A DNA stretch of 64,000 nt from an uncultured Acidobacteriota bacterium (GTDB lineage Bacteria; Acidobacteriota; Vicinamibacteria; Vicinamibacterales; UBA2999): positions 720,192 to 784,191 of the forward strand of contig CAVTIA010000014.1 in NCBI GenBank assembly GCA_963734635.1, read 5' to 3'. The translations under genes were made by a program, and so were the position numbers. How positions within the stretch are numbered: position 1 is the stretch's first letter; the number at the start of each line of letters is the position of its first letter. Shown piece after piece: positions 27 through 56,185 of this stretch. A model generated the notes under the pieces. The model saw only the letters and a list, made by a program, of their open reading frames with translations, was not told where the DNA came from and did not search any database.

Positions 27-972
27 TTAGCCCCGTTCCTTCGTCAGCATGTGCGACAGATCGAAGTCGAGGCAGGGCGGGTCTTCCAGGTAAGGCGCAT
101 CGCTCGTATTGAGCGGCATTGCCCGGGGATCCATCTCCCACGGCTCCATCAGCACGTCCGGATCGTGGACGGTCGCCTGGTAATGCAGCGTGTTGCCCTC
201 GCGGCGCAGCCGCTCGACGACTCTCATGTTGTTCGTGTGGAACCATCCGGGCCAGCCCAGCCAGCTCACGTCGTTGAAGCCGATCACCTCGATGACGAGC
301 GTATCGCCCTCCCAGCGTCCAACGGAATCACCCATGAACGTCTGGTCCTGCGAGTTGACCGGATCGTGGGGGCGTCCGTCGGTGGGGATGACGCGCCAGG
401 TGTTCCTGTTCTGGTACAGCAGGACGACGTCCTTCGGAGTCTGGAGGATCCGCATTGGCGGGCCGAGTCGGGGAACTCCCGGCGGGAAACACGAGAACGT
501 CGTGTCTTCCTTGTTGCCGTTCTCATCCAGATACTGGACGCGTTCCCAGACTTCGGGCTTGTACAGCGGCGGGTTGCCGAAGGCCCGTTGCGTGAATCCA
601 GCGTCACGCTCCGAGTAAAGGTTGTTGCCGTGACGGTAGTTCGGCTGGCGCCCGACGATCTTCGCGTTTGCACTCACCCTGCCTGCGGCGAGCGCTGCCG
701 AGTACCTCCGAATAATGCTCGAACTGATGGACTTGTCCGTTCGGCTCGATCGCCTGCACTCCACCGGCGCCGCCTGCACCGCCGCCTCCACCTCCCCATC
801 GTCCGCTGAGATCCGGCTTCCCGTCGGAGGTACGCGGAGTGGGCGCCGAGGTGGATGGGGCATTCGAAGCTGGCCGTGTCTGTGCCGCAGCGTCGAGGTA
901 GATCAGCAGCAGCGACACGGCGGCCGCTCCGGCAACAGTGACAACAAAGCGACGAACGGGACCGCACGTCAT
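27..972 (-). pseudogene. secreted conserved hypothetical protein (paralog of 23330..24169); frame broken by an apparent 1-nt indel near 690-730
   Basis: Signal peptide and TPRTSDGKPDLSGRW lie in the 604..1038 frame (ATG 972 preceded by GAGGAG). VIPTDGRPHDP and GDSVGRWEGDTLVIEV lie in the 27..863 frame. Both parts are colinear with the intact paralog; 946 nt = 3n+1. Confidence 0.6.
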
Positions 973-986
973 GAAAGTCTCCTCGC

Positions 987-1412
987 TCACTTCGTATCCG
1001 CGCCCGTACTCGTGGCCTCGGACTTGTACTGGTGCCATAGATCGATCTTCCGGCCGTCCGGCAGGATGAACGTCAGGACATATCCATTCGGCGATTTGTC
1101 TCGAGCGCGCGCGACGATCGCCGTATATGTTTCACCCGTCTTGAACACGTCCCGTCCGCTGATCCCGATGTCGCGAAAGCCGCCCGGACCGGCGCCGGAG
1201 ATGGTCCAGGTCGTTACCTTGCCGCTCTCGTCCTTGACGTCCAGGAACCAGCGCACGTGCGGGTTGATCCACAGAACCTTCGTCAGCACGCCGGTGAGCG
1301 TGGCATGGTCGTCCTGGTCGAACGCGGCCTGAACGGCATGATGAGCCCGCAGGTCCGCCGCTGCCCAGAGCAGCGCGCCCAGTATCAATGCCCCCGCAAA
1401 TCCGTAACGCAT
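987..1412 (-). CDS. DUF6152-like small secreted protein
   Basis: 141 aa with signal peptide ending ...DLRA|HH. Shares TGVLTKV..W.NPH...LDV blocks with 24264..24701 and 46652..47068. Confidence 0.75.
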   Translation of the reverse strand: MRYGFAGALILGALLWAAADLRAHHAVQAAFDQDDHATLTGVLTKVLWINPHVRWFLDVKDESGKVTTWTISGAGPGGFRDIGISGRDVFKTGETYTAIVARARDKSPNGYVLTFILPDGRKIDLWHQYKSEATSTGADTK

Positions 1413-1439: not shown

Positions 1440-2342
1440 CTAGCGCGCTGCCGCAGCTTTCTTGATGTTTTCGGGCACTGGCATCACGACGTAAGGATTA
1501 TATGTCTGGCTTTTGGTCAGCGTCAGATCCATGAGCTTGACGCCGTTCCGCTCGGCGACGATGCGGCGAGGAAGAAGGGCGTCACTCTTGTAATCGTCGG
1601 CGTTCAAATCGCGGTAATCCGAGTACGTGATGACGGTGACCGCATTGTTGAGGCGTACCTCGACGCGCTCGATCCTGTGGCTGAAGTAGCGACGTACACC
1701 CGTGGGCATGGTGTGAAACAAGAAATTCTCCGGGTCCAGCGTCGCCTTCACGGTGCCACTCTGCAGTGGAGCAGGGAGGGGGAACGTGATCACGGGCTTG
1801 CCGCCTTCCGTTGAGAACATTGCTTTGGCGCCAGCCAGCCGCGCCGCCTTGATCACCCCTTGCGGAAGCGTCCAGGCTCGCAGCAGCCGCTCCTGGGCAG
1901 ACTGGTTCATCGGCGTCGCATTGCGACCTGGCTCTGTCTCGTCCCACGCCAGCTCGCCTGCTACCACCTGCACATGCCGATCAGCTTTCTGTCCTCCGGC
2001 TGCGGCACACGCGAAATCGACGCGCATCGCCGGTACTGGATGTTTTTCCCGCCGATCCGCGGCAGGATACCGAACGCTCGCGCGGTAGTCCGTCAATTGA
2101 CAGTTCCGGCCCTGGACGTCGATCGATCCGGTGGCCCAATACTCGAACGTGACGACGCCGTCCCGCTCCTGAGGGCCGCGAATCATGCCGATGGCGTCGG
2201 CCGCTTTATAGAGGGCGGACTCGAGATCGGTTGCCGGTTGCGCCGGCGGGAATGCAGCCTGCGGTGCCTGCGCCGCCAGCGGCGCTCCGACGAGAACCGC
2301 GAGCACAAAAGGGATGACCAGGACGGATGCGACTCTTTGCAT
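1440..2342 (-). CDS. secreted hypothetical protein
   Basis: 300-aa ORF with signal peptide (VLVGAPLAAQA). Its C-terminal ITYSDYRDL block resembles MDYSDFRDV in the C-terminal domain of 47267..48448. First gene of a 3-gene minus-strand run. Confidence 0.6.
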   Translation of the reverse strand: MQRVASVLVIPFVLAVLVGAPLAAQAPQAAFPPAQPATDLESALYKAADAIGMIRGPQERDGVVTFEYWATGSIDVQGRNCQLTDYRASVRYPAADRREKHPVPAMRVDFACAAAGGQKADRHVQVVAGELAWDETEPGRNATPMNQSAQERLLRAWTLPQGVIKAARLAGAKAMFSTEGGKPVITFPLPAPLQSGTVKATLDPENFLFHTMPTGVRRYFSHRIERVEVRLNNAVTVITYSDYRDLNADDYKSDALLPRRIVAERNGVKLMDLTLTKSQTYNPYVVMPVPENIKKAAAAR

Positions 2343-20997: not shown

Positions 20998-23262
20998 TCA
21001 GCGCCCGTCACCGCCGGGCAGTTTCAGCCGTGTCAGCAGCGCCGGAAACCCGGGATGCGCGCGGATCGCGTCGTATTCCGGGTCACAACCGAGCCGCCCG
21101 AGGAACCCGTTGCCATCGCTGATACCGCGATTGAGCCACTCGATCGCCTCGTCCGTGCGATTCATGCCGACCAGTACACGTCCGCCACCCAGCAGGGTGC
21201 GATGTATTCGGTGTCACTGCGCGTCAGCAGTTCCTGCAGCGCGCGTTCGGCGTCGGCGGTCCGCCCGGCCCGGGCGTACGCGAAGCCGAGCGTCGAGACG
21301 AGCACCGGCTGGCGATCGCCCACGCTGACCGCGCGTTCCGCGGTGACGACCGCCTCGTCGCTGCGCCCGCTGGCGGCCTGGAAAAGCGCCCTGATCCAGT
21401 GCGGGAACGCGGCCTCGCGCTCGAACTCGAGGGAGAGTCGTGTATAGCGATCCGCGCGCTCGAAGTCGCGACTCCAGTACGCGACGCCGCCCGCAAGGTA
21501 GGCGATCACGGCGGAATCAGGCTCCAGCGCCACGGCAGCGTCCGCGGCGCGCACCGCGTCGTCCGGGCGCCCGACGCACGCCCAGAGCAGCCCGAGATAG
21601 GCCTGGCTCACCGCAAGCTTCGGATTGAGCGCGAGGGCGCGCTGATAGCCGGCTTCGGCGGCGGCGTAATCGTTCCGGATCCACTGGGCGGTGGCCCCGA
21701 CGCTGTGGTGCGCTTCGGCCAGCGAGGGGTCGAGCGCCAGGGCGCGATCGGCTGCGGCGATGGCGAGCGGCCCGAGTTCCCGGCCGGGCCGCACACCGTA
21801 AATGGCCATCACCGTATAGCAGTCGGCGATGCCGGCGTGCGCGAGCGCATAATCGGGATCGGCGGCCGCCGCCTTCTCGAAACACTCGAGCGCGGTCCGC
21901 AGGTGCCACCGGTTGCGTCGGGCCCAGTGGTACCGGCCCTTGAGGCAGAGCGCGTAGGCCTCGGGGTTGTCGGTGGCCTTCCGCACGAGTGGCGTGTCAC
22001 TGCCGCGCGTCAGTTTCACGCGGAGGCGTTCGGCGACGGTGCGGGCGATCTCGTCCTGCACGGCGAAGACATCGTCGAGGTCGCGGTCGTAGCGCTCCGT
22101 CCACAGCTCATATCCGTCGCCCACGTTGGTGAGCTGCGCCGTGATGCGCACGCGGTTCCCGGCCTTGCGGACGCTGCCCTCGACGACGTGCTGGACGTTC
22201 AACCGCTGACCAATCTCCGCGATGTCCAGCCCCTTCTCATGGCAACGCATCGCGGAGGTCCGGGAGGCGACCTGCAACGCGCCCAGCGCCGAGAGCGCAG
22301 TGATGATTTCGTCGGCGATGCCCTCGCAGAAGTACTGCTGATCGCCGGCGGGGCTCGAGATCCTTGAACGGCAGCACGGCGAGCGACGGCAGGGCCCTGG
22401 CGGCCGGGTGGTGACCGCCGCTCGACTGCCGCGCGCGCAGGATGGCGCGAAGCTCGTCGACGATGTCTCTTGCATGCTGGGGCCTCGCTTCAGGCGCCTT
22501 GGACACGGTCCGCGCGATCAGACGCTCGAGTCCGGAGGGGAGGTTCGCCACGAAGCCCCGTAGCGGCACGTCTTTGTTGAGAATCGCGTCGAAGATGACG
22601 GCAGTCGTGCTCCCGGCAAACGCCGGACGGCCGCTCAGCATCTCGTAGAGCACGAGCCCGAACGAGAAGATGTCGCTCCGCCCGTCCACCACGTCCCCTC
22701 GCGCCTGCTCCGGCGACATGTAGGCCACGGTGCCGAGCACGTCGCCGGCAACGGTCAAGCCTGCCTGGGTGACATCCACGGGAACGTCGGTCCGCTTCGC
22801 GAGGCCGAAGTCGAGTACTTTCGCGTGGCCGGCCGGGGTCACGATGATGTTGGCCGGCTTCAGATCGCGGTGCACGACGCCGCCGGCGTGCGCCGCATGC
22901 AGCGCGTCCGCGATCTCGATGGCCAGCGCCAACGCCTCGTCCAGCGGCATCGGGCGGCCGGCGATGCGCGCCGCGAGGGTGTCGCCATCGACGAGTTCCA
23001 TGGCGATGAAGTGCCGGCCGTCGACTTCGCCGACATCGTAAACCGTGCAGATGTTCGGATGATTGAGCGCGGCCGCGGCCCGCGCCTCGCGGCGCAGCCG
23101 TTCGGCGGAGCTCGGCCCCCGGCCATCCTCGGGAAGGAACTTCAGTGCTACGGGTCGATCGAGGCGGACGTCGATTGCGCGATACACGACGCCCATGCCG
23201 CCAGCGCCCAGTGGAGCAACGATCTGGTAGACGCCGAGACGCGTGCCGGGGAGAAGGCTCAC
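20998..23262 (-). pseudogene. Ser/Thr protein kinase with C-terminal TPR region; two apparent frame breaks (near 22355 and near 21175)
   Basis: [16 protein letters not shown] and [19 protein letters not shown]|[17 protein letters not shown] continues in the 21162..22475 frame. The tail MNRTDEAIEWLNRGI...DPEYDAIRAHPGFPALLTRLKL is in a third frame, ending at TGA 20998. Confidence 0.75.
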
Positions 23263-23329: not shown

Positions 23330-24169
23330 TCAGCGGGGTTGCGCCTGATCGGGCGACCGCATGAACAGCGACGGCCGCTTCAGGTACTCCTGATAGCGGG
23401 CCGGATCCAGGTTGTTTTCCGCACAGACGTACTCGCGGACGCGAACGCCCTCGCGGAGCATGAGCGTGCGGCGAATCGTCCACGGCTTGGCGAGCAGCTC
23501 CGGATCCTCGATCACCGCCTCGTAGTTCAACTGATCCTTGTCGATGCGCGTATAACGTTCGGTGATGTGCAGCTTGTCGCTGCTGACGATGCCGGCGGCG
23601 AGCCAGTTGCCCTCCTTGAAGTTGTTGACATCGACGACGAGCGTGTCGCCATCCCACCGCCCAACGGAGTCGCCTTGGTACGTCGGTTCGGCATCATCGG
23701 GGTGTGGGCGGCCGTCGGTGGGAATGATTCGGACGGCATTGAAGTACTCGTAGATGATGACGACCTGCCCGGGCGTCTGTACGAACTGAATCGGGAAGAG
23801 GATAACGCCGGTCATCCGCGGACCGGCCGAAGGCAGGCAATACGCCGTCGGATCGTCGATCGAACGCCGGTTGAGCAGCTCCTGCGTGCGCTGTCGCGCC
23901 GATGGCAGCAGTGATGGCGGCTCGTTCTGCGGGCCGCCCCCCTGTCCAGGCGCCGACGGGTCCCATTCGCCGCGCTTCGGGCTCGACTGGTACACACCGT
24001 TCAAGTCGACCCTGCCGTCTGGGGTTCGCGGCGTGGCAGCCTGTGGCGGAAGGGCAGCATTCCCCGGCGACGTTTGGGCGACCGCGGAAGCAATCAGCAC
24101 CAAGGACGCGATGACCACCACGGCGACGACGCCGGCGGCGCCTGTCACGCGGGCACTCATGCCACTCAT
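23330..24169 (-). CDS. secreted conserved hypothetical protein (intact paralog of 27..972)
   Basis: ATG 24169 (or 24160), signal peptide VVAVVVIASLVLIASAVA, then IIPTDGRPHPDD and GDSVGRWDGDTLVVDV. Confidence 0.7.
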   Translation of the reverse strand: MSGMSARVTGAAGVVAVVVIASLVLIASAVAQTSPGNAALPPQAATPRTPDGRVDLNGVYQSSPKRGEWDPSAPGQGGGPQNEPPSLLPSARQRTQELLNRRSIDDPTAYCLPSAGPRMTGVILFPIQFVQTPGQVVIIYEYFNAVRIIPTDGRPHPDDAEPTYQGDSVGRWDGDTLVVDVNNFKEGNWLAAGIVSSDKLHITERYTRIDKDQLNYEAVIEDPELLAKPWTIRRTLMLREGVRVREYVCAENNLDPARYQEYLKRPSLFMRSPDQAQPR

Positions 24170-24263: not shown

Positions 24264-24701
24264 TCAGTTACCCGGCGCGACGGCAGCGCCTTCACCGGTT
24301 CCGGACAGAGGTCCAAAGAACAGATGTTTGCCGCTGGGCAGCGTGACCTCTCGTCCCAACGCAAAGGGAGAATCGTCCCGCGCGCGCCATCCGACAACCG
24401 TCAGGGTGTCACCGATTTTGATGGTTCCCTCCCGCGACCAGCCCGTGCGGTAGAGCACGACTGACGGGTAGCCTTCGAATACCCAGGCCACCACTGCCCC
24501 GTCCTTCTCCTTGACGTCCAGGTACAGATGACTGTGAGGATTGGTCCACTGCACCTTGGTCAGGACACCGGTGATGGTGACCGGCTTGTTGGCGTCGAAG
24601 GTTGCTCCGAAGGAGTGATGCGCCCAGACAGGCGCCGCACCACTGAGCGCCGCGAACAGCGCGAGGCCGGACGCCACCGCGAAAACCGGACAGGTACGCA
24701 T
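24264..24701 (-). CDS. DUF6152-like small secreted protein
   Basis: ATG 24701 preceded by AAGGAGG; signal peptide ...APVWA|HHSFGATFD; 145 aa. The rest of the 369-aa track ORF upstream is non-coding-looking. Confidence 0.8.
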   Translation of the reverse strand: MRTCPVFAVASGLALFAALSGAAPVWAHHSFGATFDANKPVTITGVLTKVQWTNPHSHLYLDVKEKDGAVVAWVFEGYPSVVLYRTGWSREGTIKIGDTLTVVGWRARDDSPFALGREVTLPSGKHLFFGPLSGTGEGAAVAPGN

Positions 24702-31432: not shown

Positions 31433-34099
<2,667 letters not shown>

Positions 34100-44723: not shown

Positions 44724-46339
44724 TTATCTCGCGAACACGTACACGGCGCCTGACTCATCCACCGAGTTGTCGGCCTGATTGCCGTTGACGCCGGTGGCCC
44801 CGCTGTCTTCGCCGCGGGCGCCGACTGCGAGAGTCCGGCCGTCGCGGCTGAGCGCGACGGATCCTCCGAACTCGTCGTACGCCTGCGTGTTCGAGCCTTT
44901 CATGTATGCCTGCTGCGCCCACATCGCGCCAGAACGCGCGAACAGGTAGACAGCCCCGGCCTCCTCACCGGATTCATCCTTCTGGTTGCCGTTGATGCCT
45001 TGCGCCGCGCTGTCTTCGTTCTGCGCGCCGGCGACCAGCGTGTTGCCGTCGCCGCTCAGCGCCAGCCGAACGCCGAACCAGTCGTTCTGTCCGGTATTCG
45101 ACGCTTTGATGTAGGCCTGCTGCGTCCAGGTGGTGCCAGTGCGCACGAAGATTGCCACTGCGCCGGCAGACTGGTTGGCCTTCTGGTCGGCCGCTCCGGT
45201 GTCGGACGGGGCATTGACGACACCTGTGCACAGACAATCCTCGTCGATGGATCCCATAGCCAGCGTGTTGCCGTCGTCGCTGATCGCCACCGACACTCCC
45301 CACGAATCGCCGCCTTCCGAGTTCCACGTCTTCAGGTACCCTTCGCGCGTCCACGTCGAGCCTTTGCGGACGAGGACGTATACGGCGCCGGATCCATTGC
45401 GCATCGTATCGATCGGAGCGTTTACGCTTCTGCCGGATCCGCCCTCGTCGTACACGCCGATCGCGAGCGTGTTGCCGTCGGCATTGAGCGCGAGGGAGTA
45501 GCCGAACTGATCGCCTGCGGTGCCCATCGGCGGCGCTTCTGACTTGATGTAGGCCTGCTGGGTCCATGCAGTTCCGCTGCGCGCGTAGAGGTACACGGCA
45601 CCAGCGGTGAGCGCGGACTCGTCCTTCTGGTTCCCGTTGATCCCGCTCGCGTTGCTATCTTCGCTTGGCGCGCCCACCGCGAGCGTGTTGCCGTCGTCGC
45701 TGAGTGCGACGGAGAAGCCGAACTGATCACCTTCGCCCGGAAGGTCGCCTTCGCCCGCATTGCCCGTGTTCGACGCCTTGATGTACGCCTGCTGCGTCCA
45801 GGTGTTGCCGCGCCGCGTGAACACGTACGACCGCGCCGGCCTGAGGAATCGAATTGTCTGTCCTGGTTGCCGTTCACCCCTGTTGCGCCGCCCGACTCCC
45901 AGAACGCGCCGACCGCCATGGTGTTGCCGTCAGCGCTCAGCGCAACGACGTTGCCGAAGTGGTCGCCGTTTCCCGCGTTGGAGGCTTTCACGTACGCCTG
46001 TTGTGTCCAGGTCCCACCGTTGCGGGTGAAGACGTAGACGGCGCCGGAATTGTAGGCATCGTCATTCGTTTGATTGCCGTTAACTCCGCGCGCGCTGCTG
46101 CTCTCGTGCTGCGCGCCGACGGCGATGGTATTGCCGTCGCCGCTGACGGCAACGGCGTTGCCAATGTGGCCGTCGAGCGCTCCGCCTTCGCCGAAGTGAT
46201 CGAACATGCCCGGGTTCGACGCCTTGATGTATGCGATCTGTTTCGGGATTCCCGGCCCCTGTGCGACGACCACCGGTGCAAGGATGGCTAGAACGGACGA
46301 ACAGCAAACGAGCGCGGCCGCGAGAAACCTCGGGCTCAT
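44724..46339 (-). pseudogene. FG-GAP/integrin-like repeat protein (third paralog); two apparent 1-nt insertions about 32 nt apart (near 45860 and 45828)
   Basis: ATG 46339 and signal peptide FLAAALVCCSSVLAILAPVVVAQG. GVNGNQD | DNSIPQAGAV | YVFTRRGNTW needs three successive frames; 1616 nt = 3n+2. Confidence 0.7.
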
Positions 46340-46535
46340 GAATGCCTCCGACTGGACCGCTATGCGGCTCGAAAACCCGCGAATCTTGTACTCGTTATGA
46401 ATCCGCATAGCGGTCCTGGGCGCGCGGAGCGCACCAAGAAGACGCTGCCAATCAGCCAAGGGCATTCTCGCCGGAAATCAAGGGCAGGCCCTTGGCTGGG
46501 TGGATGATGACGAAAGGCGGATTGTACAGAAATCA

Positions 46536-46651: not shown

Positions 46652-47068
46652 CTACTGCGCGTTCGGCGCCGGCTGTCCGTAGTTCGCGTTCTGCATCACC
46701 ACCTTGCCCGAATCGGCGAGGATGACGCGCGCGCGCTCGGTGAGGTTCATGTACGGCGCGCCGCTCTTCAGCCGTCGGCCGGTCAGTGTCACCTTCGTTC
46801 CAGGCTTCACATCGTTGGTCCAGCCGCTCTTAATGAGCTGCTGCGCGCCCCCCATCTCAGCCTGCCAGCGTACGTTCTTTCCTTCGGTGGCCACGTCGAG
46901 CACGAGAATCGAGTGGGGGTTGACCAGCTGTGTCTCGACGACGGTTCCCGTGATCTCTAGGACCTCTTCGATGTAGCGGCCCGCATCGCCGTGGTGCGCC
47001 CATGCGGCGCCCGAAAGGACGAGAGAGCCAACGGCCATACCAACCGCAAAAATTAGAGTCTTCTTCAC
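46652..47068 (-). CDS. DUF6152-like small secreted protein
   Basis: GTG 47068 preceded by AGGAGGGG; signal peptide ...SGAAWA|HHGDAGRY; LVNPHSILVLDV block. Confidence 0.75.
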   Translation of the reverse strand: MKKTLIFAVGMAVGSLVLSGAAWAHHGDAGRYIEEVLEITGTVVETQLVNPHSILVLDVATEGKNVRWQAEMGGAQQLIKSGWTNDVKPGTKVTLTGRRLKSGAPYMNLTERARVILADSGKVVMQNANYGQPAPNAQ

Positions 47069-47245: not shown

Positions 47246-47283
47246 GTGCCTGAGCACTCAGGCACCTTAGGCGCCTAGGCACC
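47246..47283. repeat. AGGCACC word-repeat tract
   Basis: GTGCCTGAGCACTCAGGCACCTTAGGCGCCTAGGCACC; overlaps the annotated 3' end of 47267..48448. Confidence 0.55.
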
Positions 47284-48448
47284 TTGTAGCGTTAATACGG
47301 CTTCGGCGGTCCCGGTCCGCGTATCGCGTCGCGTCGATCGTCACGTTCGCCTGCACGTCGCTCAACTCGAAGTTCGACCGTCCGTCGAGCCAGGTCATCG
47401 TCCATTTGAACGGAAGCTTGACGCCAGCCACGTCGCGGAAATCAGAGTAGTCCATCTGAACCGGCAGACGTCCCACCGGAGAAGGGGTCGACCGGACGAC
47501 GCGTGTCAGCAGGCCTGTTTCTTCATCGAAGTACAGCGTCACGAGCGCGGCACCTTTGTTTCCTTGAACCGCCAGCACCGTCCGGTCGTTGATGAAATCG
47601 CTGCTGGAACGCGTGTTCGTCAACGCCCCTTTGATGTTGGCGGGAAACATCAGCTCTGCGTCGGCTCTGGCCGAGTCGAGCTCTGCACCATGTAGCTCCA
47701 TGACCGCAACAGGCTTGAACGGTGCCGAAACCCAGCTGGCTGTTCCACTGAAGATGGTCGTATTGTCGCCTGCTTCCTTGTCGCGGACGATCACGGCTCT
47801 CTGATTCGGCGCCTTCGCGTAGATTTCCACCGGGCGCGGGAAGCCTTCGGGCCCGTAGCCGGAATAGGTTCCCTTCGCCGTGTAGCTGGTGAGCTTCGCG
47901 ACACGATCCGCACCTCCGACCGCCTGCAGGTACTTGTCGAGGATCTGGGCTGCCGTTGGCGTCCCCGGGGGTCCCGGTGCCAGCATCACGTCGAGCTCGT
48001 CGAGCTGTGGCGTGCCATAGAGCATCACGAGACTCGGGGTGACTTTGGGCCGGTTGCTGCCGCGGTGGCAGGAGAAGCAGGTCACAACCTGACGTCCGCC
48101 GAAGTACTGCTTGTTGATTTCGGTCATGATCGTGACCATGCGGCGGGCCGTCTGCTTCCGCGGGCTGACGTCCTTGGCGTAATTCGCCCAGTCGTTGGAT
48201 GACGCGGTGTGGCAGTCCTCGCATGAGAACCCGAGCGCTGCCGAAAACACGCCCATCGTTCCCATGAACTCGTCCACCGGGATGCCGCGAAGCACAGTGA
48301 CGTTCTTGAACACGTTTTCCGCCAACAGCTGGCTCTGTGCCGCCGGTTGAACGGAGCCGGCCTGACCGCTGACGAACGCCACGGCCGTCGCCCACACGAC
48401 AGCCGTGCCCACGGCACTCCAGACAATCTGTCTCGATCCAAACCTCAT
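47267..48448 (-). CDS. secreted c-type cytochrome (reaction-centre cytochrome-c-subunit-like N-domain) with an additional C-terminal domain
   Basis: VFKNVTVLRGIPVDEFMGTMGVFSAALGFSCEDCH and VVTCFSCHRG. The last ~20 codons (RDRRSRINATRCLGA) look non-native; an alternative frame ends ...GPGPPKPY at TAA 47292, so the 3' end is uncertain. Confidence 0.7.
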   Translation of the reverse strand: MRFGSRQIVWSAVGTAVVWATAVAFVSGQAGSVQPAAQSQLLAENVFKNVTVLRGIPVDEFMGTMGVFSAALGFSCEDCHTASSNDWANYAKDVSPRKQTARRMVTIMTEINKQYFGGRQVVTCFSCHRGSNRPKVTPSLVMLYGTPQLDELDVMLAPGPPGTPTAAQILDKYLQAVGGADRVAKLTSYTAKGTYSGYGPEGFPRPVEIYAKAPNQRAVIVRDKEAGDNTTIFSGTASWVSAPFKPVAVMELHGAELDSARADAELMFPANIKGALTNTRSSSDFINDRTVLAVQGNKGAALVTLYFDEETGLLTRVVRSTPSPVGRLPVQMDYSDFRDVAGVKLPFKWTMTWLDGRSNFELSDVQANVTIDATRYADRDRRSRINATRCLGA

Positions 48449-48699
48449 GTCGCCTCCGATACGATCGTTCCCATTCTCCAGTACGATCTACTTTGCCCGA
48501 AGAGGGGCAGTTTACCCCGTGTTTTCAAGGGGGCAAAGGCTGCGCCAGTCCGAATGTAATGGCCCGTCTGAAGAAGGCGCGCGATGGCGTTCGGTCGGTG
48601 CGGCTTTTTTCGCACGCAGGCCGGAATTCCTCCCGCGAGCCACAGAGAACACAACCCTGCCCTCGGCTGGTTTATGATGGCCCCCGCACCGGAGGTGTT

Positions 48700-49704
48700 A
48701 TGCGAAGAATCCTGTGGGTCGTGACTGCGGCTGCGTGTGCAACGTTGTCGGTCAGCGTTGCATCACAACAGGCCGCCACAGGCATGTACCCCGACAAGCC
48801 GTGGGCGTTCCCGGCGCAGATCGAGAAACCGTTTCCCCCGGACGCCGCGCCCAAGACGGTGCCGGGGAGCTCGAAGAAATATACGGAAAAAGAAATCGAT
48901 GATCTGATGAACCCGCCGGATTGGTTCCCCGATCAGCATCCGACGCCGCCGCAGATCGTCATGAAAGGACGTGGCGGGGCGATGGCGTGCGGCGCATGCC
49001 ACCTGATGTCGGGGCTTGGCCATCCTGAATCGTCAGGCCTGACGGGCCTGTCGGCGCCCTACATCGTCCAACAGATGATCGATTTCAAGAACGGCACCCG
49101 GAAGGACGTCACCGGCAAGCGCATGAACGGAATCGCCATGGAAATGACCGACAAGGAAATCCAGGAGGCGGCCGAGTATTTCGCGGCGCTTCCGGTGCGC
49201 GCATTCCAGAAGGTCGTCGAGATGGACATGGTTCCGAAGACGTTCCTCGCCAACGGGCGCATGCGCTTCGTCGATCCGGGCGGCGCGATGGAGCCGATCG
49301 GGGCGCGAATCATCACCGTGCCGCAGGAGGTCGAGCGCGTGCGGCTGCGCGACCCGTACGTCGGGTTCCTGTCCTACGTGCCGACGGGCAGCCTCGCTCG
49401 CGGCAAGAACCTCGTCGAGACCGGCGGCGGCAAGACGATGAACTGCGCGCTCTGTCACGGCGCCGGATTGAAAGGGCAGGCGTCAATCCCGCGACTGGCC
49501 GGGATGCATCCGATTTACACGGCGCGCCAGCTTTACTGGTTCAAGGACGGAACTCGCAGTGGTCCCGACGCGGCGCTGATGAAGCCATGGGTGGCGTCGT
49601 TGAATGACGACGACATCGTCGCGATCTCGGCGTATCTGGCTTCGCTGCGAGCCGTAAAGGTCCGGCTAAAGCCGGACACTGATCGTTACGTAGGTCGTAG
49701 GTAG
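48700..49704 (+). CDS. dihaem c-type cytochrome, secreted (paralog of 5489..6595)
   Basis: ATG 48700 preceded by GGAGGTG; CGACH and CALCH. The 18 C-terminal codons after AYLASL are encoded by REP hairpins. Confidence 0.8.
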   Translation: MRRILWVVTAAACATLSVSVASQQAATGMYPDKPWAFPAQIEKPFPPDAAPKTVPGSSKKYTEKEIDDLMNPPDWFPDQHPTPPQIVMKGRGGAMACGACHLMSGLGHPESSGLTGLSAPYIVQQMIDFKNGTRKDVTGKRMNGIAMEMTDKEIQEAAEYFAALPVRAFQKVVEMDMVPKTFLANGRMRFVDPGGAMEPIGARIITVPQEVERVRLRDPYVGFLSYVPTGSLARGKNLVETGGGKTMNCALCHGAGLKGQASIPRLAGMHPIYTARQLYWFKDGTRSGPDAALMKPWVASLNDDDIVAISAYLASLRAVKVRLKPDTDRYVGRR

Positions 49705-53275: not shown

Positions 53276-56185
53276 CTAGAAAGTGAACCTGAACCCGAAC
53301 TGCATCGTGCGGTACTCTCCGGCCGTCGGCAGCAAGTAGTTTTGGATCAGGCTCTCTTGCAAGCCGAGCGTATAGTTGGTCCGGTTGAACAGGTTGAAGA
53401 CCTCCGCGATGGCGGTGAGCGACATCGTCCCAGGCAGCGGAACCCGCTGCCGCAGGCTCAGAGAGGTCCGATTCTCTTTCGGGCCGAGCTCCGCGTTGCG
53501 CGGCACGATCGTCCCATTCGGTCGCAGGCGGGCGCTGCCGCCGCCGAAGGCGCGCACATCCCCCCCGTAGCTCGTGGCGAGCCGGTTGCCGGCGCCGAAG
53601 TAGTGCAGGCCGCTCACCTGGAAGCCGAAGCCGACCTGCCAGATGCCGCTGAGCACCAGGCGATGACGCCGATCATCCTGCGAGAACCCCCATTCGCCGC
53701 CGAGATCCGGCTGCGTCTCGAACGCGACCGGACTGAGGCCCTGGAACGGGTAGGAGTCGGAGTTCCAGAGTCCCGACAGCGTATACGTCGCCGACGCCTG
53801 CCAGTTGTTGCTCATTCGCTTGCTGAAAGCGGTCTGGAGCCCGTGGTAGGAGGACTCGCCCGTGTGGACGCTCATCGAGGTGTTGCCCCATCGGGGATCG
53901 ACTCGGCGGGCGCGGTCAGCCGCGGGGTAGTTGGCGCCGGTGGCCGGGTTGAAGGTCAGGTTGACGTTGTCGATGACGTCCTTTTCGTCCCGCCCTTGGG
54001 TATACACGTAGTCGGCCTCGACGGCCATCGTGCCGCCAAACTGCCTCTGCATACCGATTGTGGTCTGCCATGTTCGCGGCACGTGGATGAACTCGAACGG
54101 TCCGCGGAACTCTTGGAGCGCACGCGTCAGGCAGGGCGCCGCGCCGGCGAAGCCGCGGGCCTGCCATGCCGCGAAATTCGCAGCCTGTGCAGGCGAGTCA
54201 CAGAACGTGGTCAGCGCCTGCTCGTAAGTGGGCAGCCCCTGCCCGTTCGTCGGGTCGAGCGCAAAGTTGGCGCGGCCATCGTTCAAATATTCGATGTTGG
54301 CAATCTGGGCGTTGCCGGTGGCAAACGAGAAATCCGCGCCGATCGCGTCGCCATAGTACAACCCCGACCCGCCGCGGATGACCGTACGCTCGTTCAGTTG
54401 AAACGCGAAGCCGACCCTGGGCTGGATGTTATTGAGATCCTCCGGCATTCCGGCAGACTGCCACGGTGCCACTTCGACGTCGTTGGCGAAGCTGTGGAGC
54501 GAGGCGTCCCACCGCAGGCCGAGATTCAACGTCAGCCGGTCCGAGATTCTCCAGTCGTCCTGCGCCCACGCGCCCGTTTTGTACGAATCGAGCAGCACAT
54601 TGAAGTCGCCGATGCCGATGGTGTATCTCACCACGAGTGGCGAAATGGCTGCGAGATTCCACGTGTCGGCGTTGAACGGGTCGGGGAACCACGCTGTCAG
54701 CTGCGCGGCCGTTGGCAGCGGCCCTCCGCGGGCGTCGATGATGCCCATGCAGTTCCGGCAGTTCGCCTGTATCTGATGGCGCTTCAGGAACTCTGCGCCC
54801 GCGCGCAGATCGTGACGGCCGCGTGCTTCATACGAGAAGGTGAAATCGTCGCGGAAGGTCCAGACCGTCTGGTCCTGGTGCCGGGGATGGTTCGCGTTGC
54901 CGGTGACGTTGAATCCGGTGAACGAAATGCGCGGCGACCCCGTGGTGATGCCGTTCGCCTTCTGCCAATGGTTCGACCAGGTTGTCGGATTGGCATTGGC
55001 CAGGTTGAAGAACGCATAACCGACCTTCGCCTCGTTCACAGCACGATTCGAGATCACGTGCGTCAGCTGACCCATGCCTTCGTTGTTGTGCTCGACGGTC
55101 GTATTCGTGGCCGCCGGGCTGTTGTTCGCCGCAGGCAAGCCGAACGGCTCAAAGAACCGTCCCCAGGTGCCTTTGCCCATCAGCCGGATCTCGTTCGAGA
55201 GCTGGTAGTCGCCACGAACGTTGGTCAGCTTGATCGTCCTGTCGCCGTGCAATTCCTTGTTGAAGACGGGGAACGGCGTATTCCAGATGCTGCTGCGTGG
55301 CTCGCGCTCGTACTCGAAGTTGCCGAAATAATGCAGCTTGTCTCTGACAATCGGGCCGCCGGCGGCGGCACTGAATTGCTGGTTGTTTATTGGGACGACG
55401 CGCTTGAGAACCGGCTCGTCGGCGTTGAGGCGGTTGTGGCGGAAGTTGGTGCGGAACAGTCCCGAAAGCTGATTCGTGCCGGACTTCGTGATCACGTTGA
55501 CCTGTACGCCAGACGTTCGCCCCTGAGTCGCGTCGAAGCGATTCGTCAGGTACTGGAACTCGGCGATCGCGTCCTGGCTGTAGCGCGGCTGGTTGCCGGT
55601 GCCGATTTCATTCGACACCTGCTGTCCGTCCATGTTGAGCTGGAACTCACGCGCCTCGCCGCCGTTCCGGTCGGGTAGGGGTGTCACCGCGTTGCTGGAG
55701 CTCGTGCGGCTGCCCGGCGCCAGCATTGCGAGCGCGAGCCAGTTCCTTCCGTTCGCCGGCAGCTCCTGCACCTGCGTTGGATCGATGTTGCCCCCAAGGC
55801 TCGACGTCGTCACGTTGAGCAGCGGCGCGTCCGCCGTTACGGTGATCGTCTCCTGCACCGTGGACGGCTTAAGCTCGGCGTTGATGGACGCCGTCTGGCC
55901 CACGAGCACCTGCACGCCCGTCTGCGTCACGATGGTGAAGCCCGAGAGCTCCATCGTGATGCGGTAGGCCCCGACACGCACCGGGATGCGGTAGATACCC
56001 AGGGCATCCGTGACGGCCGTAAAGGTGTTGCCGGTCGCGTCGTTGACAGCGGTCACGGTTACGCCGGGCAGTACACCTCCCGTCGCGTCAGTAACAGTAC
56101 CCGTCAGTGTGGCTTCCTGCGCGAATGCCATCACCGGAAGTGCGAGAAGAATGCCGACGATCAGGAACCGCCTTACACACTTCAT
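53276..56185 (-). CDS. TonB-dependent outer-membrane receptor with N-terminal CarboxypepD_reg-like domain
   Basis: Signal peptide, GTVTDATGGVLPGVTVTAVNDATGNTF...GIYRIP, plug-like region, and a long beta-barrel ending ...MQFGFRFTF. Confidence 0.85.
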   Translation of the reverse strand: MKCVRRFLIVGILLALPVMAFAQEATLTGTVTDATGGVLPGVTVTAVNDATGNTFTAVTDALGIYRIPVRVGAYRITMELSGFTIVTQTGVQVLVGQTASINAELKPSTVQETITVTADAPLLNVTTSSLGGNIDPTQVQELPANGRNWLALAMLAPGSRTSSSNAVTPLPDRNGGEAREFQLNMDGQQVSNEIGTGNQPRYSQDAIAEFQYLTNRFDATQGRTSGVQVNVITKSGTNQLSGLFRTNFRHNRLNADEPVLKRVVPINNQQFSAAAGGPIVRDKLHYFGNFEYEREPRSSIWNTPFPVFNKELHGDRTIKLTNVRGDYQLSNEIRLMGKGTWGRFFEPFGLPAANNSPAATNTTVEHNNEGMGQLTHVISNRAVNEAKVGYAFFNLANANPTTWSNHWQKANGITTGSPRISFTGFNVTGNANHPRHQDQTVWTFRDDFTFSYEARGRHDLRAGAEFLKRHQIQANCRNCMGIIDARGGPLPTAAQLTAWFPDPFNADTWNLAAISPLVVRYTIGIGDFNVLLDSYKTGAWAQDDWRISDRLTLNLGLRWDASLHSFANDVEVAPWQSAGMPEDLNNIQPRVGFAFQLNERTVIRGGSGLYYGDAIGADFSFATGNAQIANIEYLNDGRANFALDPTNGQGLPTYEQALTTFCDSPAQAANFAAWQARGFAGAAPCLTRALQEFRGPFEFIHVPRTWQTTIGMQRQFGGTMAVEADYVYTQGRDEKDVIDNVNLTFNPATGANYPAADRARRVDPRWGNTSMSVHTGESSYHGLQTAFSKRMSNNWQASATYTLSGLWNSDSYPFQGLSPVAFETQPDLGGEWGFSQDDRRHRLVLSGIWQVGFGFQVSGLHYFGAGNRLATSYGGDVRAFGGGSARLRPNGTIVPRNAELGPKENRTSLSLRQRVPLPGTMSLTAIAEVFNLFNRTNYTLGLQESLIQNYLLPTAGEYRTMQFGFRFTF

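Follow-up and report, generated by a model that had tools for sequence, protein, structure and literature searches.

The DUF6152 proteins (Pfam PF19649) encoded in a 64,000-nucleotide stretch of DNA from an uncultured Acidobacteriota bacterium (contig CAVTIA010000014.1; the whole stretch is referred to as the window herein) are, on sequence and model evidence, well-supported candidates for a new N-terminal-histidine metalloprotein scaffold that acts as one half of a two-protein module. A histidine-brace-like metal site that uses the N-terminus appears to be the best explanation for our data, because the mature proteins are predicted to start with an invariant His-His (HH), a third invariant histidine lies in an Asn-Pro-His (NPH) loop, and the triad of histidines is lost in domains that are internal to a polypeptide. 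We assign the whole explanation, a histidine-brace-like site on a new oligonucleotide/oligosaccharide-binding (OB) scaffold working with a secreted partner, a probability of about 0.5. The linkage of DUF6152 to this partner, a second barrel protein, is the main new finding and the strongest functional clue.

Three exported DUF6152 proteins in the window

The window contains three DUF6152 genes, which we refer to as W1, W2 and W3. All are on the minus strand, and their features are as follows:

987..1412, minus strand: W1, DUF6152 paralogue of 141 amino acids (PF19649, 57.6 bits)
1344..1412, minus strand: W1 signal peptide MRYGFAGALILGALLWAAADLRA, from translation, ending in L-R-A
1338..1343, minus strand: W1 His-His, from translation
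1257..1265, minus strand: W1 Asn-Pro-His, from translation
24264..24701, minus strand: W2, DUF6152 precursor of 145 amino acids (PF19649, E=1.6e-27, 95.9 bits)
24621..24701, minus strand: W2 signal peptide MRTCPVFAVASGLALFAALSGAAPVWA, Sec type, with V-W-A preceding the predicted cleavage site
24615..24620, minus strand: His1-His2 of the predicted mature W2 protein, from translation
24534..24542, minus strand: W2 Asn27-Pro28-His29, in the loop between strands 1 and 2 of the barrel in the AlphaFold2 model
46652..47068, minus strand: W3, DUF6152 paralogue of a distinct subfamily (HHGDAGRY...LVNPH), 138 amino acids, GTG start (65.9 bits)
46997..47068, minus strand: W3 signal peptide VKKTLIFAVGMAVGSLVLSGAAWA, with the GTG start, ending in A-W-A
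46991..46996, minus strand: W3 His-His, from translation
46913..46921, minus strand: W3 Asn-Pro-His, from translation

Family membership was judged by the gathering threshold of the PF19649 hidden Markov model (HMM), 27 bits, and W1, W2 and W3 all score above it and thus belong to DUF6152. The sequence-only reading from which this study started had noted HH directly at the predicted cleavage site of all three paralogues, with an invariant NPH behind it. Translation of the coordinates gave the same picture, as each paralogue has a signal peptide that is immediately followed by His-His and then, after 23-24 residues, by Asn-Pro-His. Cleavage sites were predicted from the (-3,-1) rule and the hydrophobic core only; by this sequence rule (A/V/L-x-A directly before HH, following a hydrophobic core), histidine is residue 1 of the mature protein, as it is in a histidine brace. 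When the three proteins were aligned to the HMM, the only features common to them were H1, H2, N27-P28-H29, some glycines and Trp46.

Conservation of the HH and NPH motifs across the DUF6152 family

Searching with W2 yielded 113 homologues; all those of full length have HH directly after an alanine and NPH further on. At the scale of a profile search of 1.84 billion representatives, there were 19,464 DUF6152 cluster representatives (50% identity) at E<=1e-3, and HH precedes NPH by 22-30 residues in 145 of the 149 best-scoring of these. The search homologues were combined with 140 DUF6152 domains from 120 genome loci into one HMM alignment of 388 non-identical sequences. Since the loci had been picked from GTDB species genomes by a DNA pattern for [FY]D..G..WTNPH, which leaves the HH codons out, conservation of HH is an independent test for the 140-domain subset.

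Of these 388 HMM-aligned homologues, 387 have His1, 386 have His2, 386 have Asn27, and all have Pro28 and His29. Position -1 is Ala in 370/388 (95%) and Gly in 12/388, while position -3 is A, V, L, T or I. The sequence-only reading would have had to be abandoned if HH were not conserved at the predicted cleavage site, and that objection falls away with these counts. Further positions that are strongly conserved are Ser3, Asp9 (98%), Gly18, Trp25, Trp46 and Glu49 (96%). The W3 subfamily, with 1,828 matches, keeps HH directly after Ala and NPH 23 residues on in 120/120 among the matches listed. On this sequence evidence, HH followed by NPH is a trait of the family rather than a coincidence among paralogues. 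P0114, with 4,832 residues and 30 matched stretches, was left out of the counts as an unrelated repeat protein, since no more than the C-terminal third of the profile aligns with it.

Neither Cys nor Met is conserved in the family, with 84% of members being Cys-free and mature W1 and W2 containing neither residue, and any metal site would therefore be ligated by nitrogen and oxygen. Soil Acidobacteriota, Caulobacterales, Sphingomonadales and Steroidobacteraceae are rich in DUF6152. Judging by how the closest homologues are named, the window itself probably comes from a Vicinamibacterales acidobacterium.

DUF6152 is nearly always encoded beside, or fused to, a secreted barrel protein

Directly downstream of both W1 and W2 lies a gene for a secreted protein of an unnamed family, which we refer to as the partner:

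23330..24169, minus strand: W2 partner, secreted, 279 amino acids, beginning 94 nucleotides past the W2 stop codon
27..972, minus strand: W1 partner, beginning 14 nucleotides past the W1 stop codon, its reading frame broken once

Three-frame translation places the N-terminal part of the W1 partner in the frame of the open reading frame (ORF) at 604..1038 and the remainder in the ORF at 27..863. Comparison of the W2 partner with this region by tblastn gave matches at 132..572 (E=6e-30) and 802..909 (E=5e-4).

To count the linkage, we used the 68 DUF6152 domains from the 120 GTDB-species loci with 1.3 kb or more of flanking sequence on each side. Adjacency or fusion to the partner was seen in 65/68, with the partner lying within 600 bp in 63 and being fused in 2. 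The order of the genes is not fixed, the partner being found downstream in 57 instances and upstream in 48, on the same strand. These loci include Bryobacterales, Vicinamibacterales, Terriglobia and Caulobacteraceae, as well as Sphingomonadales, Steroidobacteraceae, Pseudomonas and Bordetella, so that the linkage spans Acidobacteriota and Alpha-, Beta- and Gammaproteobacteria. Partner genes also sit beside DUF6152 in an unrelated metagenomic genome (loci L002-L005), in an acidobacterial contig (L006) and on Novosphingobium and Croceibacterium plasmids. The partner is thus near-obligatory for DUF6152 proteins such as W1 and W2, a context that the sequence-only reading had overlooked.

The partner family (~270 amino acids, secreted) has more than 5,600 homologues, all annotated as 'hypothetical'. 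The W2 partner carries the motifs C-x-P-x-G, R-I-I-P, G-x-S-x-G-x-W-x-G-D-T-L-V-V, E-R, D-P and Y-x-C-x-E-N, and the residues conserved in the family are two Cys, which probably form a disulfide, an Arg, the G-x-S-x-G-x-W-x-G-D-T-L-V-V motif, Glu-Arg and Asp-Pro; none of His, Tyr and Met is conserved. No Pfam family matched the partner even at E<=5, lipocalin-type and haem-binding families included, and NCBIfam holds no model for either the partner or the DUF6152 protein. The AlphaFold2 model of the partner, with a predicted local distance difference test score (pLDDT) of 83, shows a beta-barrel with about nine strands. The best Foldseek matches to it are CRBP, CRABP, FABP and nitrophorin, all weak (E>=2e-3; template-modelling score 0.35 by query and 0.59 by target). 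Searching the PDB with the partner by sequence and by profile likewise gave nothing above chance level.

Other genes recur beside the module. A small secreted protein of 137-139 amino acids (E-G-H-P-L-T-G-T-W-Y-G-D-W-G-P...) without a Pfam model is found beside DUF6152/partner clusters in L002 (9318..9737), L031 (6883..7290) and three further loci. Ser/Thr kinases with PD40/Tricorn or TPR extensions adjoin DUF6152/partner modules in several acidobacterial contigs, at 21162..23262 and 31433..34099 in the window, in L006, in L088 and in the contig of P0098; this may reflect how abundant kinases are in the phylum.

DUF6152 is predicted to adopt an OB-like fold

AlphaFold2 was run on mature W2 with a 54-sequence alignment (A1), all members of which match PF19649. 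The resulting model has a pLDDT of 88.9 and a predicted template-modelling score of 0.81. DSSP assigns a coil at residues 1-3, a short helix at 4-7, a long strand at 8-24, a loop at 25-30 (W-T-N-P-H-S), strands at 31-37 and 43-49, a helix at 53-58 and strands at 72-80 and 86-93. The predicted fold is an OB-like barrel of 5-6 strands plus a helix, which puts the modelled domain in the OB-fold class. At the N-terminus, the mean pLDDT is 78 over residues 1-10, and one residue outside the C-terminal tail is below 50.

Foldseek against the PDB returned weak OB-fold matches only (probability 1.0 but E 6e-3 to 5e-2), namely LysRS anticodon domains, SSB, PriB, Stn1 and CcmE, and weak Pfam OB-family matches recur in 7-10 of the 54 alignment members. 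Sequence and profile searches of the PDB with DUF6152 gave chance-level matches only (E<=10), so that neither Foldseek nor sequence comparison with the PDB found a close solved structural relative. A literature search likewise found no paper mentioning DUF6152. The sequence-only reading had described the family as functionally uncharacterised, and these searches bear it out.

Tandem domains, fusions and coevolution point indirectly to a need for a free N-terminus

Tandem two-domain DUF6152 proteins allow the same domain to be compared with and without an exposed N-terminus. Among the representatives there are eight (P0115, P0119, P0120, P0121, P0126, P0128, P0149 and P0154). The first domain has Ala-His-His followed by NPH in 8/8, and the internal second domain has the full triad in 0/8. 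HH is kept in four of the second domains, in which the NPH position reads NPR, KPR, FPN or GGR, and is lost in the other four. In the two second domains with NPR or KPR, the Arg that replaces His may be a side-chain mimic of the lost metal. The fusions of DUF6152 to the partner have a single order: in all seven found in the genome scan, as well as in a 375-amino-acid fusion in L002 (6742..7869), the signal peptide is followed by Ala or Gly, then by the HH of the DUF6152 domain, and last by the partner.

We also examined coevolution by mean-field direct coupling analysis (DCA) of the 388 sequences (effective number, Meff, ~315), with the final run restricted to variable columns. H1-H29 and like couplings between invariant columns, which appeared in the first run, were pseudocount artefacts and were discarded. 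DCA recovers the pairing of beta2 with beta3 (H31-V47, Y33-V47, D35-V43), of beta1 with beta4 (L20-L72, T17-T71, T15-T73) and of beta3 with beta5 (F48-A86). It also couples T7-S53, T7-A79 and F8-V47 (ranks 22, 23 and 33; ~3 standard deviations), along with H31-V47, H31-F85, S30-Y57 and S30-V54. Residues 7-8, the residues after His29, the end of strand 3 (by Glu49), the start of the helix and the beta4-beta5 turn would therefore lie at one mouth of the barrel, and by this clustering His1 and His2 would be within reach of His29, in terms of coevolution and not of a distance. The tandem second domains, the order of the fusions and the coevolution data fit, indirectly, a site that needs a free N-terminus.

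Comparison with known N-terminal-histidine and OB-fold proteins

In a histidine brace, as set out in PMC10952591, one metal is bound by the amine and N-pi of His1 and by the N-tau of another histidine. Like the histidine-brace proteins, which comprise lytic polysaccharide monooxygenases (LPMOs; AA9-AA17), CopC/YobA, YcnI and PmoB CuB, DUF6152 proteins are secreted, predicted to be cleaved before His1 and equipped with a further conserved histidine. Unlike them, DUF6152 is predicted to be an OB barrel, not an immunoglobulin/fibronectin type III-like beta-sandwich; it has an immediate second histidine and an obligatory partner, and it is known from sequence and model only. DUF6152 gave no match to the Pfam LPMO, CopC (PF04234) or YcnI (DUF1775) families even at E<=5. 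With a predicted OB barrel in place of a beta-sandwich, DUF6152 is therefore not a member of the LPMO, CopC or YcnI families, nor does it belong to another known histidine-brace family. The sequence-only reading had likened the proteins to LPMO-, CopC- and PmoB-type brace sites; the signature of HH after Ala and an invariant NPH sustains the likeness, while fold and family membership do not.

N-terminal histidines that follow a signal peptide also chelate Ni or Cu in DUF4198, DUF6702, Ang-1 and Ang-2 (Franco Cairo et al., Nat Commun 2025; PMC12537917). DUF6152 resembles these four as a bacterial DUF recognised by its N-terminal histidine, and the spacing of its His1, His2 and His29 is similar to that of His1, His28 and His32 in DUF6702 (PMC12537917). 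These families are beta-sandwiches with an N-terminal histidine in only 65-79% of members (100% in Ang-1 and Ang-2), unlike DUF6152 with its predicted OB fold and ~100% His. Moreover, none of the four has been reported with a fused or adjacent barrel partner, which DUF6152 has. DUF6152 is absent from this 2025 'signal-strapping' survey of N-terminal histidines and its supplements (PMC12537917).

As a small periplasmic barrel with a predicted OB fold, DUF6152 can also be set beside CusF, BOF/YgiW and CcmE. CusF, a periplasmic OB-fold chaperone for Cu(I) and Ag(I), and CcmE carry metal or haem for a partner, and the haem-binding histidine of CcmE is C-terminal. DUF6152 differs from CusF, which has a His/Met/Met(/Trp) site for Cu(I), in having no conserved Met or Trp that would provide thioether or pi ligands and in being mostly Cys-free, and it is not a CusF-type protein by these features. 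CusF was absent from the top 50 Foldseek matches and gave no PDB sequence match at E<=10 beyond chance level.

Other genes around DUF6152

The W3 subfamily has a different set of companions. Comparison of the window with the W2 partner by tblastn found no barrel partner near W3, the immediate neighbours of which are as follows:

47267..48448, minus strand: c-type cytochrome with two CxxCH motifs and a CytoC_RC-like N-terminal part (PF02276, E=7.8e-13), directly upstream of W3
44724..46465, minus strand: FG-GAP repeat protein (PF14312), downstream of W3, in two overlapping ORFs here

A second cytochrome c lies near W3 at 48493..49704. The trio of cytochrome c, DUF6152 and FG-GAP protein is kept in at least two other assemblies (L130-L132 and L133-L134), and a CBM9_1/DUF5916 protein is often found near W3-type trios. 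The haem-rich neighbourhood described in the sequence-only reading therefore holds for W3, and does not hold for W1 and W2. The 300-amino-acid protein upstream of W1 (1440..2342) was considered as kin of the C-terminal part of the W3 cytochrome and rejected (BLASTP E=0.16), and neither of these two recurs in the 120 loci.

The FG-GAP protein is contiguous in relatives, at 513-534 amino acids. It is one of three genes near the paralogues with a single frameshift each, the others being the W1 partner (~863..972) and the kinase-TPR gene (21162..23262), which encodes a contiguous Ser/Thr kinase-TPR protein of 780 amino acids in the relative L088. Indels introduced by long-read assembly would explain this better than true pseudogenes.

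The only large recurrent class of extra neighbour is a TonB-receptor-like gene (CarboxypepD_reg plus OMP_b-brl_4), present within 4 kb in 20/120 loci. L075 (300..3515) provides an example; in the window, the nearest such gene (53276..56185) is ~6 kb from W3, and in Croceibacterium a TonB-dependent receptor comes after the DUF6152 module. DUF4198 adjoins TonB receptors (PMC12537917), and some DUF6152 loci are alike in this respect. This adjacency is only suggestive, as such genes are very common in Acidobacteriota. There were no recurring metal transporter or metal regulator genes among the neighbours in the 120 loci.

DUF6644 four-helix membrane proteins are encoded in one or two copies beside DUF6152 in ~6/120 loci, sometimes without the barrel partner. 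Their shared features are an invariant histidine in helix 1, a D-L-R-x-x-G motif and G-R-W-I at the C-terminus. Such neighbours were seen in L008 (7322..7795, on the Paracoccus denitrificans PD1222 plasmid), L007 (3346..4321), L046, L049, L060, L098, L104 and L128. On the Pseudomonas mediterranea chromosome (L055, 4804..7441), an outer-membrane barrel with a weak Alginate_exp match, the partner, DUF6152 and an Abhydrolase_10 alpha/beta hydrolase are encoded together in this order, and a second, divergent DUF6152 gene and a cytochrome b561 gene lie near this operon. The succession of DUF6152 and DUF6644 in some loci, and the nearby cytochrome b561 in P. mediterranea, recall the CopC-CopD and YceI-cytochrome b561 pairs. 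The likeness to CopC-CopD is an analogy only. DUF6644 itself was rejected as CopD-like, as hhalign against E. coli CopD (YebZ) gave a probability below 1% and the only other match, to DUF2214, was sub-threshold.

A proposed metal site and the alternatives to it

We propose that DUF6152 proteins are exported by the Sec pathway and cut after A-x-A, which would leave a small OB-fold barrel with His1-His2 as its free N-terminus. The N-terminal segment would then fold back to the barrel mouth that bears the rigid Asn-Pro-His loop, where His1, probably through both its amine and its imidazole, His29 and possibly His2 would form a mononuclear divalent metal site with N/O ligation, to which Asp9 and Glu49 may add in most members. 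By analogy, Cu(II) would be a first guess for the metal, with Ni, Zn and Fe as possible alternatives. DUF6152 and the co-encoded secreted barrel, which is weakly calycin-like and probably ligand-holding, would make up a two-protein periplasmic module, whereas the companions in the W3 subfamily would instead be a c-type cytochrome and the FG-GAP protein. The metal may serve as a cofactor, forming a 'warhead' for redox or catalytic chemistry on whatever the partner holds. We consider a cofactor more likely than a cargo because the centre does not vary among members, the partners do vary and come in multiple copies, the neighbouring genes are catabolic or redox-related and not of a metal-homeostasis kind, and W3 is paired with a cytochrome c.

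The histidine-brace reading is plausible and, at the level of sequence, consistent with every test run, and several points weigh against it. The HH that persists in four internal second domains may mean that HH can serve without a free amine, and the decay of second domains could merely reflect relaxed selection. The couplings that bring the N-terminus close to His29 are moderate (ranks 22-33), and DCA is silent on the invariant residues themselves. The pLDDT values suggest low confidence for the first residue or two of the W2 model. In the canonical OB topology, strand 1 starts at the end opposite the L12 loop. As for the additional ligands, Asp9 and Glu49 are not universal, as W1 has Ser at the usual Glu49 position and the W3 subfamily lacks Asp9.

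A plain site of three histidines, with or without a carboxylate, is an alternative in which Zn(II), Ni(II) or Fe(II), for instance, would be bound by the side chains of His1, His2 and His29, the alpha-amine would have no role, the N-terminal placement would be incidental, and the protein would bind metal in the periplasm or hand it off. A 3-His-1-carboxylate set is typical of metal sites, and DUF6152 offers three invariant histidines together with Asp9 and Glu49, near-invariant at 98% and 96%. The HH retained in the four internal second domains would also be accounted for, and the TonB-receptor-like genes within 4 kb in 20/120 loci, along with the one in Croceibacterium, resemble the context of the Ni-binding DUF4198 (PMC12537917). 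However, if the free N-terminus were irrelevant, it would be unexpected that none of the eight internal domains has the full triad and that DUF6152 is N-terminal in all fusions, and the Ala directly before His1 in 95% of sequences speaks for the exposed residue as well. The neighbourhoods argue in the same direction, as no metal transporter or regulator genes recur in the 120 loci, and numerous paralogues, three in 64 kb here, are unusual for metal homeostasis. We therefore regard a plain site as unlikely, though worth serious consideration.

We think it somewhat less probable again that the histidines form no metal site in the protein itself and that DUF6152 and the barrel partner jointly use them to bind or process an organic ligand, for example by axial ligation of haem or another tetrapyrrole, by holding an anionic group or by acid-base catalysis. 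Such a role would suit a partner that weakly matches retinol- and fatty-acid-binding proteins and the haem-binding nitrophorins, the appearance of the OB-fold haem chaperone CcmE among the weak structural matches of DUF6152, the TonB-receptor-like and outer-membrane channel genes nearby, and the cytochromes that flank W3. All of these fold matches are weak, however (E>=2e-3), with no Pfam haem-binding or lipocalin match at E<=5, and the partner conserves two Cys, Arg, Glu and Asp rather than any His, Tyr or Met; strict HH at residues 1 and 2 is better explained by chelation through the amine. A purely structural or processing role for HH and NPH, in which they would provide a signal-peptidase context or cap the barrel mouth without any ligand chemistry, would agree with a barrel that AlphaFold2 predicts confidently without a ligand and with the gathering of conserved residues at one mouth. 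It is nonetheless very improbable, as signal peptidase I needs no histidine at +1 or +2, His occupies +1 in only ~2.6% of signal-peptide-cleaved proteins (PMC12537917), and the invariance of three histidines in 388 sequences from several phyla that are otherwise 28-40% identical goes far past a structural preference.

The proposed N-terminal metal site can be taken a step further, to a specific picture that we consider improbable in its full detail. DUF6152 and its partner would be a two-component periplasmic metallo-oxidoreductase not recognised before, in which an invariant OB-fold copper brace receives electrons from c-type cytochromes or small membrane proteins and acts on small, probably hydrophobic, substrates held by diversified calycin-like partners. 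On this picture, a histidine-brace enzyme system distinct from LPMOs would be widespread in soil Acidobacteriota and Proteobacteria.

Implications

N-terminal-histidine sites underlie LPMOs, sites related to particulate methane monooxygenase and copper trafficking proteins. New scaffolds of this kind are actively sought, with four reported in a 2025 Nature Communications paper (PMC12537917). If our reading is true, DUF6152 would provide the first example of such a site on an OB fold, as well as the first in which a partner protein is obligatory and sometimes fused. The module has culturable hosts in Paracoccus denitrificans PD1222 (WP_011751034.1), Pseudomonas mediterranea and Novosphingobium. 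If the DUF6152/partner pair were defined, tens of thousands of genes now labelled 'hypothetical' would gain an annotation, and new redox or uptake chemistry in the periplasm could come to light.

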